From positions 174,015 through 238,014 of IMG/VR virus record IMGVR_UViG_3300044852_000015: a stretch of DNA of 64,000 bases, one strand, 5' to 3'. Positions 40-59,502 of this stretch are shown piece after piece. The notes beneath the pieces were generated by a model that was not told the origin of the DNA, made no database searches, and saw only the letters and a program-made list of their open reading frames with translations. This DNA comes from a virus (Duplodnaviria > Caudoviricetes). The stretch's first letter is position 1. Every line of letters starts with the position of its first letter. The position numbers and the translations under genes were made by a program.

Positions 40-657
40 ATGGGGCGTTTAGTAAATCTGCTCGAGGAAGCTGAGCTTACCTTGACTTACAGTGCAGAAG
101 GAATCGCTTTGCTGGATGCTAGCGAAGCGGAGGTTCCAACCAAGGATGTTTATATCCTGTTGACCGACACCAAGACCTTAGTGAGTAAGGTTAGCCGTAT
201 GGTGACAGGTGATCCGTATAACCACGTATCGCTGATGCTGTCTGAGGACTTCGACGAGGGTATCTATACCTTCAGTCTCTCAAACGGACTCAATGGCATC
301 TTCGGTGGCTTCATGGTCGAGGATCGTAAGAACCTGAAGGGGTCACACTACTCCATGTATCGTCTCGCTGTCACCAACAGCGTCTACGACAAGATCAAGG
401 TTAAGGTGACTGACTACGTTAACGCGGTAGACAAAACCTCCTACAACCACCTTGGGTTGTTCAATGCGATCTTCAAGAAAGGTATCTTCAAGTCTGAGGA
501 TGGCCAAGCTGCGATCTGTTCTGAGTTCGTGGTGGAAGTACTTAAGTTCGCTGGCGTAGAACTCTTCGCCAAAAGATTAGCGAGTACTGTAAGACCTTAC
601 GACTTGGTCAAATCCAAGCTGCTGAAGTTCTACAAGCGTGGCGTCATAAAAGGCTGA
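40..657 (+). CDS. Permuted papain-like (NlpC/P60, YiiX/YaeF-type) amidase/peptidase, possibly a virion head protein
   Basis: His before Cys (YNHVSL ... YNHLGLF ... ICSEFV), as in permuted papain-like enzymes; acidic N-terminus with S-A-E and A-S-E motifs. Confidence 0.6.
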   Translation: MGRLVNLLEEAELTLTYSAEGIALLDASEAEVPTKDVYILLTDTKTLVSKVSRMVTGDPYNHVSLMLSEDFDEGIYTFSLSNGLNGIFGGFMVEDRKNLKGSHYSMYRLAVTNSVYDKIKVKVTDYVNAVDKTSYNHLGLFNAIFKKGIFKSEDGQAAICSEFVVEVLKFAGVELFAKRLASTVRPYDLVKSKLLKFYKRGVIKG

Positions 658-661
658 ATCC

Positions 662-690
662 CCGGCTCACTTCGGTGAGTCGGTTTATGA
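662..690 (+). terminator. Hairpin terminator of gene 40..657
   Basis: CCGGCTCAC-TTCG-GTGAGTCGG followed by TTTATGA. Confidence 0.8.
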
Positions 691-1250
691 CGGCATAAAA
701 GCGCGGCTCGAGGGAATCTCAACCTACTCCAAGTGCCCCTCACCATTAGGTTGGTGGTGAGGCGACCTCGTTTCGCGCGGAATCCCTGCGGCTTTGCTTT
801 TATGCTTTCTTACTGTTAAGTAGAACTGGCTTGTCGTACCCGTGATCGTCTTCCTCCCAAGGCCTTGGGAAGTACTGGCTCAATAGAGCACTACCTTAGA
901 TCCACACTGTTTTTGTGCTTACACCCTCGCGCTACTCCGGCCCCAAACTGAGGCTCTATCACATTGAAATGCTCGTGAACCTCTAAGCTCTATAAGGTGG
1001 CCAAGAGGTATGCTTACCCGGCCCTTTGCCGAGTGCATTACCACCGAACCACTTAAAGGTGATCTTAGAAAGGCGCAAGGCGTTTGATTGTGGTTTGCCG
1101 GAATCTCTCCCTATGTTGGGTAACAAACTGAACACGAGCGTGTGCATCAGTCTGAAAAGAGCGAACTCTCTACCCCAACTAGAAATCCCCAACCAAAGCC
1201 AGTTCTTCAACTCTTCTGTCACGGTGTGCGCATTAACCGTTGGCTTCAGG
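690..1250 (-). ncRNA. Candidate large structured non-coding RNA (family unassigned)
   Basis: No credible ORF; 11-bp closing helix 822-832/1196-1206, many nested helices with G-U pairs on the minus strand, a UUCG hairpin, a pseudoknotted 3' module 693-805, TATAAT upstream and a TTTTATGCCG end motif. Confidence 0.6.
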
Positions 1251-1623: not shown

Positions 1624-1815
1624 TCAGCCCAGACCGATACCAGAAGGACGGTTCTCGACCTGATGTTTCGCAGGATCGTAAACTACCTTCTCGTACAGGT
1701 TGTGCCAAGGTTTACCCAAACAGCAAGTGCATTGGAAAACGTTACCCGCTGGCTTGCTCAGGAGTTCAATGGTTCCACACCTGTCGCAAGCGTATTCCAG
1801 CAACGTACCGCTCAT
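1624..1815 (-). CDS. Small zinc-ribbon protein
   Basis: CDRC...CTCC motifs; TAATG overlap with the phuZ stop codon. Confidence 0.7.
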   Translation of the reverse strand: MSGTLLEYACDRCGTIELLSKPAGNVFQCTCCLGKPWHNLYEKVVYDPAKHQVENRPSGIGLG

Positions 1816-2777
1816 TACAACACCAAGCCGTCGTCAGTAGTGGCAGTGTCGCCCACCAGATCAACAGCAGCAGCACGACCTTCACGACGACGAATGAAGT
1901 CGTCCAGAGTCTTCTGGAGTTTCTCGTAAGTAGCATCGAGATTCTCGGTGGACACCACGAGGTGAACTTCGCTAACACCTTCGATAGCGGTCTTGAAGTA
2001 GCCGGTGCACGGATACTCTGGGATCGGTTCTTCCAGGTGCTTCTGATCACGGTCGCTGTAGAGCGAAGCGATGGTGATCGGGTCCTTGATGGCCGCAACG
2101 GCTTCAGGGCTGTAGAAGATGTCCAACATCGCCAGTTGTGCAGGCACGCTGGTCGAGTGGTTGAAACGCAGCCAGTTGGCAACGTCTTTGGTGTCCAGCT
2201 CGTCGTTCTGACGCGAAGTCAGGTAGCACAGGCTGGAGATGGCCAGGTGGAGCTGACCGTCGACTACCGAACGAGTGCACTCGCCGCCGTTGTGACGGTA
2301 GTACATGACGATCGGGGTATCGACTTGTTTGGAGATGGCTGCCAGCGACTTGATGGTGTTCAGGCTGTTCTGTGCAGTGATGGTCGATTCCGAAGAACCC
2401 GCCAACAGTACCACAACCGAGTGACCACGGGCTGCCAGTTCTTTGGCCAACAGTGGACCAATAACCGAACCCGAACCGCCGGATGCCGAGAAGACCACGA
2501 TGTTGAAGTCTTCAGGAACTTGTTGCAGAAGGATCTGCTTGACCGCTGCGGAGATCTGCGCGTGGTTCTCTTTACGCACTTTACCGGAGCCGTCGGTTTT
2601 GTCGAGGACGTAGATCGAGCTTTCGTCTTCGATGCCGGCCAGGTTGGAACGGCTGGTGTCAACGAAGCTGACCAGTGGGGTAGCGAAGCCAGGAGCTGGA
2701 GGACGACCGATGTAAGTCTTGACGATGTTCGTACCCAGACCACCACAGCCGTACAGACGCACTTTACCTTGTTCCAT
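1815..2777 (-). CDS. phuZ: Phage tubulin PhuZ (spindle protein)
   Basis: GCGGLGTNI N-terminal loop, SASGGSGSVIGP tubulin signature, ELDTKDVANW T7 loop, acidic-hydrophobic C-terminus DDGLVL; 320 aa. Confidence 0.95.
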   Translation of the reverse strand: MEQGKVRLYGCGGLGTNIVKTYIGRPPAPGFATPLVSFVDTSRSNLAGIEDESSIYVLDKTDGSGKVRKENHAQISAAVKQILLQQVPEDFNIVVFSASGGSGSVIGPLLAKELAARGHSVVVLLAGSSESTITAQNSLNTIKSLAAISKQVDTPIVMYYRHNGGECTRSVVDGQLHLAISSLCYLTSRQNDELDTKDVANWLRFNHSTSVPAQLAMLDIFYSPEAVAAIKDPITIASLYSDRDQKHLEEPIPEYPCTGYFKTAIEGVSEVHLVVSTENLDATYEKLQKTLDDFIRRREGRAAAVDLVGDTATTDDGLVL

Positions 2778-23344: not shown

Positions 23345-23401
23345 CGGCATAAAAGCAAAAAAAAAAAAAGAGGGGGCCCGAAAGCCCTCTCTTTTATGCC
23401 G
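23345..23401. terminator. Bidirectional terminator (A-tract plus GCATA/TATGC)
   Basis: CGGCATAAAAGC-A13-GAGGGGGC-CCGAAA-GCCCTCTC-TTTTATGCCG. Confidence 0.8.
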
Positions 23402-25977: not shown

Positions 25978-26023
25978 ACGGCATAAAAGACCCAAGGGCT
26001 ACACACCCTTGGGTTCTTATGCG
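25978..26023 (-). terminator. Hairpin terminator, GCATA/TATGC class
   Basis: Plus-strand ACGGCATAAAAGACCCAAGGG-CTACACA-CCCTTGGGTTCTTATGCG. Confidence 0.8.
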
Positions 26024-58182: not shown

Positions 58183-59502
58183 ATGTATAATCTTAAAGGG
58201 TTTATGGTCTTCGCACCATTGGCTAACAACTCATTCGACGTAATTGCACCTCTTGGGGAACTCTCAACCCATTGTGCAACCTTCTCCAAAGAGAAAGGGC
58301 AATACACCAACGTCACTTACGCTGATTCTAAACTAATCAGTTTCCTGAGTCAACGTACTGATGTCGATGGTGTTGAAACTCAGATCACCGCTCCGGTAGT
58401 ACACCAGAACGCTGCGCTGAACTTGAGTCAATGGATCTTCACCAAGTCCATGGCGCAAGAGATCTCCCAAGATCGTGACGCCTTCTCTTCGGCGTTGATC
58501 TCCAGTTACGGTCAGACGCACTTGGAGCTGGCCTTCGGTGAGATCGTCGGTGACGGTTCACGTTGGATGCCGGAGTGGGTCAGCTATAAGCTGGACGATG
58601 CTGAGGACAACCGTGTTCGTTTGTGGTTTGCCGATGACTCTTTCCGTCGTCAGTACGATGAATACGAAATAGGTTTCGTTCCACCCATCGCTGCGCTGGA
58701 CGATTTCTTTAAAGACCCCCTGATCGTGAAGGCGGCGGTAGAAGCGTGGTCTCTGACCTCTGCTCTGGAAAAGGCTGACGTGTTGAAAAACCGTAAGCCC
58801 GAAACCGTGATGCTGAACAAGGTCTACAAGTACTTCGCTCAGCTCGCACCGTTCATTGACCTGAACACCAACTGGACCGTCATCATCTGGGGTCCGGCTG
58901 GTAATAACCCAGACATTATCAAGCAAGAACTGGCCAAATGGATTCTGGCTAACTCACAACATACCGAAGAAGAATGGATGGACCTGTTTCCAGACATCTT
59001 CACTTCGACTGAATACATCGTCACGCCGTTCTGGGACGAAGTAGCGATCGAACAAAAGACGATCGTCACCGGTGTGTATTCGCCGACTGTACGGGTTAAG
59101 GATGTTATCTCGGTTTCGAACCTGACCATCAAAGGTAAGAACTACAACCAACTCCACATCGACGAGAACCTCTGTGTCTCCAGCGTTCTGTACGGTTCGT
59201 TGGCTATGTCTGTCTGTGGTGGTCCGTATAACCGAGATGGTGTCAAGCGGTTCAACGACCAGTGGCCTGACTACATCAACGTGTCGACCCAGTCCCCAGA
59301 CTTCAACCGCATGAAGTTGGCAACGCAGGATTTTGTCAACCTCCTGTACTCGATGTTGATCGTTGCAGAGAACGCTACCTTGTTCTCGGACATTCCACTC
59401 GGCATGTCTCGGGTTACTCGTGATGGTATCGTTTACATCGCGGCTTCCATGAACGACATTCTGTATCTGGTCGTGACCAAGTACTCGATGCTCGACATCT
59501 GA
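58183..59502 (+). CDS. Virion structural protein (phiKZ gp157-like)
   Basis: 439 aa from MYNLKGF, GAGG SD; synteny after RNase H. Confidence 0.65.
   Translation: MYNLKGFMVFAPLANNSFDVIAPLGELSTHCATFSKEKGQYTNVTYADSKLISFLSQRTDVDGVETQITAPVVHQNAALNLSQWIFTKSMAQEISQDRDAFSSALISSYGQTHLELAFGEIVGDGSRWMPEWVSYKLDDAEDNRVRLWFADDSFRRQYDEYEIGFVPPIAALDDFFKDPLIVKAAVEAWSLTSALEKADVLKNRKPETVMLNKVYKYFAQLAPFIDLNTNWTVIIWGPAGNNPDIIKQELAKWILANSQHTEEEWMDLFPDIFTSTEYIVTPFWDEVAIEQKTIVTGVYSPTVRVKDVISVSNLTIKGKNYNQLHIDENLCVSSVLYGSLAMSVCGGPYNRDGVKRFNDQWPDYINVSTQSPDFNRMKLATQDFVNLLYSMLIVAENATLFSDIPLGMSRVTRDGIVYIAASMNDILYLVVTKYSMLDI

Follow-up and report, generated by a model that had tools for sequence, protein, structure and literature searches.

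A long irregular stem-loop at the end of a structured RNA downstream of phuZ in a nucleus-forming jumbo phage is probably an elaborated phiKZ-type terminator

The stretch of DNA analysed here, the window, is the final 64 kb of a 238-kb virus record. It encodes both a PhuZ tubulin and a large terminase, and since a chimallin (chmA) homolog is found as well at 157-159 kb of the genome, the phage is, as judged from its gene content, a nucleus-forming, phiKZ-like jumbo phage. The phuZ gene (1815-2777, minus strand; phrog_4733, E 7.6e-89) is followed on the same strand by two small ORFs and then by a gene-free gap of about 600 nt, beyond which lie a convergent gene of 205 aa (40-657, plus strand; phrog_1128) and a tRNA cluster. 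Within this gap and on the strand of phuZ, a long irregular stem-loop occupies positions 693-805, hereafter the module, and it is immediately adjoined by the convergent gene's own plain terminator hairpin (662-689, plus strand), which faces the opposite way. With phuZ and the 205-aa gene as synteny anchors, we gathered relatives of two kinds: 15 are close, with 74-97% identity in the anchors, and 10 are distant, with 59-67%. As the anchor gene has no match among cultured phages, and as the region after phuZ in Xanthomonas phage RTH11 is coding, no laboratory model of the locus was found; blastn searches with both RNA types against cultured phages gave no real match either. Apart from this locus, the leader of the chimallin gene, about 220 nt long (L177 upstream of 2006, minus strand; genome about 159205-159430), has several blocks common to six relatives and may be a structured regulatory element.

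Among the close relatives the gap is conserved over its full length as a structured non-coding RNA (690 to about 1250, minus strand), of which the module is the last domain; both-side changes occur in 28 of its 102 predicted pairs. This parent RNA is about 570 nt long (550-600) and multi-domain, and in the close set conservation in its 5' half exceeds that of most of the upstream ORF. Rfam scans at both gathering and E-value thresholds returned nothing relevant for the window or for seven related loci, and no description was found in the literature searched; the RNA is thus, as far as its sequence tells, an uncatalogued large RNA of nucleus-forming phages. Upstream of the module, two long-range pairings are likely its real pseudoknots, namely 1139-1133 with 977-971 (spanning 971-1139, minus strand), which is 100% paired in 13 genomes with one both-side change, and the loop pairing of 1231-1227 with 1077-1073 (spanning 1073-1231, minus strand), a candidate pseudoknot which is 100% paired in 13 genomes and invariant, hence without covariation. 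By this measure the former is better supported than the pseudoknot which had been proposed inside the module and which is discussed below.

Several other elements of the parent RNA and its surroundings vary in their conservation. The loop at 855-870 (minus strand) is self-complementary, with AGGCCU in most relatives, ACGCGU in L144, L094 and L137, and AUGCAU in L092, that is, it varies as a palindrome, as expected for a kissing or dimerisation loop; it is absent from L145 and L090. A perfect 11-bp helix between 1206-1196 and 832-822 (minus strand) is not conserved: L104, L091 and L086 retain about 6 bp of it, and in L094, L003 and L090 it is disrupted. A small hairpin at 1310-1290 (minus strand), inside a 114-aa ORF (1267-1611) and near its end, is conserved at the nucleotide level in all relatives, and therefore the start of the RNA, or of its promoter, may lie within this ORF, whose stop codon differs among relatives. 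Directly before the RNA lies an AT-rich element (1263-1255, minus strand), which in L145 and L142 is identical to the TATATTAC motif; this motif has 12 promoter-like sites in the genome, all on the minus strand. Moreover, a 17-nt hairpin absent from the RNA of the window is near-invariant in the post-phuZ RNA of the distant clade and is seen again in other phage contigs, three of them 254-277 kb in size, within structured stretches that seem to be free of genes (loci L149:3086-3640, L096, L097, L098, L139, L161, L167, L169 and L173 in all); it may mark a wider RNA family.

As for the module itself (all positions on the minus strand), an A-rich 5' arm (796-805) pairs with 702-693 to form the basal helix, and the 3' arm carries a tail of the phiKZ terminator type, a U-tract followed by AUGCC (690-702), at which the RNA would end. 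Above it follow a double-bulge core made of 786-792, with a bulged C at 788, and of 706-712, with a bulged A at 708; then a 5x4 internal loop of the sarcin-ricin type, with the 4-nt strand GAAA and its closing bases at 770-775 and the 5-nt strand GAGUA and its closing bases at 724-730; and finally an apical hairpin (738-762) with a 9-nt loop (754-746). A sequence-only reading made before our analysis had described much of this correctly: this genome does contain the 10-bp closing stem, an apical hairpin of 8 bp (762-755/745-738) whose 9-nt loop has a perfect 7-nt complement at 726-720, and the inner helix 787-780/718-711, which contains one U-U mismatch and hence 7 of the 8 pairs. It was also right that simple hairpins stand between the same flanks elsewhere, for example at window positions 23347-23399 and 25982-26021, and that here such a terminator hairpin is replaced by a self-contained fold that forms the 3' end of a larger RNA.

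The stem-loop folds with a z of -4.1 relative to shuffled sequences (0 of 200 as stable); over the 16 close genomes z ranges from -1.6 to -5.8, and of the 11 whole-RNA folds computed, 9 show the module closed as a local structure (P about 1). It is present in a single copy in the 238-kb genome according to model R1, no second copy having been found, and among the 71 matches of a gapped pattern scan all those beyond the known relatives are chance by the same model. A 13-nt match at window position 58621 was set aside as being inside a coding region and at chance level; CTCGAG taken as a DNA site is not over-represented and is broken in L094 and L139. We also considered antisense pairing with the chimallin leader, for which the best exact complement in six genome pairs of the close clade is 8-9 nt, at background level and not conserved.

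Comparison among relatives reveals which parts of the module are maintained. The nested helices are paired in 86% of cells, with both-side changes in 7 pairs, and none of 500 shuffles reached as high a value. The basal helix shows a compensatory change from A-U to G-C in L144, L145, L090 and L137. The core helix, with its bulged C on the 5' strand and its bulged A on the 3' strand, is 100% paired in 16/16 close genomes with one change from G-C to A-U, the bulged A and, in the alignment of both clades, the GAG of the 3' strand being invariant. The same bulged-A core is found in 7-8 of the 10 distant genomes; L140 and L139 have variants of it, and L096 has the 3' strand only. It persists in genomes whose proteins are about 60% identical and whose upstream RNA is no longer alignable. 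Another maintained element is the 5x4 loop, in which GAAA opposite GAGUA is invariant in 12 of the 16 close genomes; the loop is flanked by Watson-Crick helices on both sides, the upper one being 97% paired with both-side changes in 4 of 4 pairs, and the lower C-G pair being invariant. Its AGUA opposite GAA with an allowed fifth pair agrees with the 5x4 sarcin-ricin motif as defined with its allowed variants (PMC8450098; PMC1865062). The loop is missing from 4 of the 16 close genomes and from all the distant ones, and therefore it is dispensable. Neither the bulged-A core nor this loop had been noticed in the sequence-only reading. In several short-apex variants (the interior of L090 and L160), a second internal loop of the GUA/GAA type sits above the first, at a place where the window has Watson-Crick pairs.

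The remainder of the module is freely changed. Its interior is swapped in L144 and L089 and reduced to 35 nt in L147 and L095, the shortest version of the whole module being 78 nt. The apex is variable, and the type of hairpin seen in the window occurs in four patchily distributed genomes which, on the adjacent gene's tree, are not monophyletic (p-AU 2e-5); nor are the genomes with a loop-less apex (p-AU 9e-44). This pattern fits exchange by recombination, and the anchor gene may itself be mosaic.

Since the terminator motif of phiKZ has been defined from mapped transcript 3' ends (PMC10914365), and the intrinsic terminators of phiKZ and 201phi2-1 consist of a hairpin and then a TTAT-containing tail (PMC10914365, PMC11512511), the tail of the module merits attention. 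In fact, positions 690-702 equal the end of the phiKZ motif (PMC10914365), and the TTAT-containing U-rich tail is kept in 16/16 close and in the 10 distant genomes. In this genome the tail occurs at 25 sites, about 17 of which directly follow a plain hairpin by manual count. The gene order points in the same direction: in every relative the module separates the phuZ unit from the 205-aa gene that converges on it, with one extra gene intervening in L139. Seven distant genomes have no terminator-like structure at that site other than the hairpin, which begins just a few bases past the convergent stop codon; its two strands are both U-rich, as expected of a bidirectional terminator. In the window, no A-tract adjoins the plain plus-strand terminator at 662-689, which is therefore unlikely to stop transcription of the minus strand. 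Some properties of the module are less typical. It is not a short GC-rich hairpin of 7-9 bp with a 4-nt loop; in this genome its base before the U-tract has only 2 G-C pairs and then a 3x3 loop, which on sequence grounds is weak for a classical intrinsic terminator; and a terminator scan did not call it on the minus strand. The folding energy has no consistent preference for the minus strand, and the strand is argued from the motif and the gene order. Altogether the module quite probably serves as a terminator or as the 3' end of an RNA.

The module thus combines a nested structure free of any conserved pseudoknot, a tail and a position of the terminator type, and conserved motifs. The reading we favour, which we hold to be likely, is that it is an elaborated phiKZ-type terminator which is also a 3' protective hairpin and possibly a handle for protein binding. 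The transcription, termination, protection and binding of this RNA, which we infer from sequence, would proceed as follows. The phage polymerase would transcribe the RNA of about 570 nt, either from the phuZ operon or from the AT-rich site near 1260, and would most likely stop near 700-690, within the U-tract tail, after which the closed stem would shield the 3' end from exonucleases. A 3' protective element was indeed one of the functions suggested by the earlier reading, and it fits both the position at the 3' end and the closed fold, protection as such being conjectural. The terminator stem would have grown to about 90 nt and come to bear two RNA-level motifs, the bulged-A core and the optional 5x4 loop, which probably make up a surface that a protein binds or that docks on the upstream domain, and the apex would be a freely exchanged spacer. 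Specific protein binding by the bulged-A core is a tentative proposal, to which we give somewhat less than an even chance. A broader form of this idea, unlikely on the present evidence, would make the bulged-A stem a shared 3' handle on the otherwise unalignable large post-phuZ RNAs of nucleus-forming phages, read by a specific phage or host protein so as to stabilise, export or package these RNAs, a terminator and a binding signal being fused in one element.

Would the length of the stem alone suffice? Long stems resist processive antitermination (PMC10325885) and long terminator stems have been invoked for phage 201phi2-1 (PMC11512511), so a purely length-based terminator would agree with an interior that is freely exchanged. 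However, length alone would require neither an exact bulged-A core kept across about 60% protein identity nor an invariant 5x4 loop amid covarying flanks, and even the shortest version has not fallen below 78 nt; we thus consider this explanation distinctly unlikely.

There is at most a small chance that the module is a terminator/antiterminator switch, in which its 5' strand would pair with 1080-1069 so that the terminator opens and transcription reads through towards the tRNA island. In 9 of the 11 genomes computed the two strands could form such a duplex, 11 bp long and worth about -13 kcal/mol, RNAalifold picked it on the sequence alignment, and it would account for the invariance of the module's 5' strand. 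Yet the duplex is broken in L094 and L090 (-5 to -6 kcal/mol), two genomes in which a compensatory change preserves the local pair, and its probability is 0.0 in 11 of 11 whole-RNA folds. Moreover, the upstream segment already has an invariant partner in 1231-1227, and the read-through RNA would be antisense to the 205-aa gene.

A further possibility was put forward by the sequence-only reading, namely that the apical loop pairs with 726-720 in an H-type pseudoknot, giving a compact ligand-binding or protective fold; one may restrict it to this genome or to an alternative state of the RNA. The complement is perfect over 7 bp with workable loops of 1, 1 and 11 nt, feasible in this genome only, and P is about 0.01 per hairpin. 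This is the chance of about 1% for a 7-nt complement near a random 9-nt loop, and such a complement exists at 2 of the genome's 34 comparable hairpin sites (4 of 68 counting both strands), therefore one such case per window is unremarkable. The proposed pairing is absent in 15/15 relatives, and such non-conservation had been named beforehand as the outcome that would speak against the pseudoknot. Four of the relatives lack the region altogether, two having a different interior and two only 35 nt. In the other 11 comparable genomes the longest complement is 3-5 bp, at chance level (P 0.15-0.98 each), the best residual case being L148 with 5 bp, one both-side change and P 0.15; over the 12 comparable modules 62% of cells are paired versus 60% in shuffles, 101 of 500 being as high. 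Even L094 and L137, which have almost the same hairpin, pair by just 4 and 3 bp, and L143, L145, L090 and L160 have an identical partner tract opposite unrelated loops. The tract 726-720 is conserved without the loop because the 5x4 loop uses the first bases of the supposed partner, and in relatives the tract serves the nested loop and the helix below it. The pseudoknot would thus require the invariant 5x4 loop to melt, and by a rough energy estimate it reaches -30 to -39 kcal/mol versus -45 for the nested fold, which is better by 6-16 kcal/mol. A functional pseudoknot is accordingly very unlikely, and the 7-bp complement is very probably incidental.

A small self-cleaving ribozyme making or processing the RNA 3' end, a suggestion to which the size and terminal position of the module and its GAAAC stretch, reminiscent of the cores of the hammerhead and hairpin ribozymes, lend some appeal, is extremely unlikely, as no family matches at E<=10, the GAAA is accounted for by the 5x4 loop, and the interior is replaced in two of the 16 close genomes (L144, L089) and cut in two others (L147, L095) to 35 nt, which therefore hold no catalytic core. 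The ligand-binding fold suggested along with it is unsupported on the same grounds, a conserved binding core being equally absent. The covariance-model scan of Rfam 15 found no ribozyme or riboswitch match, in line with the earlier remark that no hammerhead, pistol or HDV consensus is recognisable. Among other known RNA elements, the likenesses to group I intron P4, group II domain V, SRP, Y RNA and 5S helix II break down in element order or in consensus, and none of these has Rfam support for the module.

The claims of a pseudoknot and of a ribozyme can be dropped as a result. What the module does provide is the probable 3' limit of a large, uncatalogued RNA of nucleus-forming phages, and its bulged-A core comprises the most deeply conserved nucleotides of the parent RNA. 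The ChmC protein binds near start codons with little specificity (PMC11077065). The core is a small, synthesisable bait with which to find the protein partner of the RNA. The module alone is of modest interest; more promise lies in the parent RNA.

Small ribozymes and riboswitch aptamers with an H-type pseudoknot include hammerhead, pistol, HDV-like and preQ1 RNAs. The module resembles them in size and, in one genome, in its loop complement, but it differs in that its pseudoknot is unconserved and comes without a core or a covariance-model match. The parent RNA is comparable with GOLLD and ROOL (PMC12286853) in being 550-600 nt long and multi-domain with long-range pairings, in its proximity to a tRNA cluster and in its self-complementary loop, whereas it has no Rfam covariance-model match in the window or in the seven related loci. 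With the sarcin-ricin/loop E 5x4 motif (PMC8450098) the module shares GAGUA/GAAA as a variant of the order G-A, A-A, bulged G, U-A and A-G; its copy differs by sitting in a terminator-like stem of a phage RNA, where it is optional (12/16), and by a 3D fold that is predicted from the sequence. The closest likeness in function would be to the terminators of phiKZ and 201phi2-1, with which the module has in common the same tail, the position at the end of a transcription unit and the convergent or bidirectional arrangement; it departs from them by an irregular stem of about 90 nt in place of a 7-9-bp hairpin, by a GC base that is weak in its clade, by the conserved bulged-A core and by the predicted internal 3D motif.
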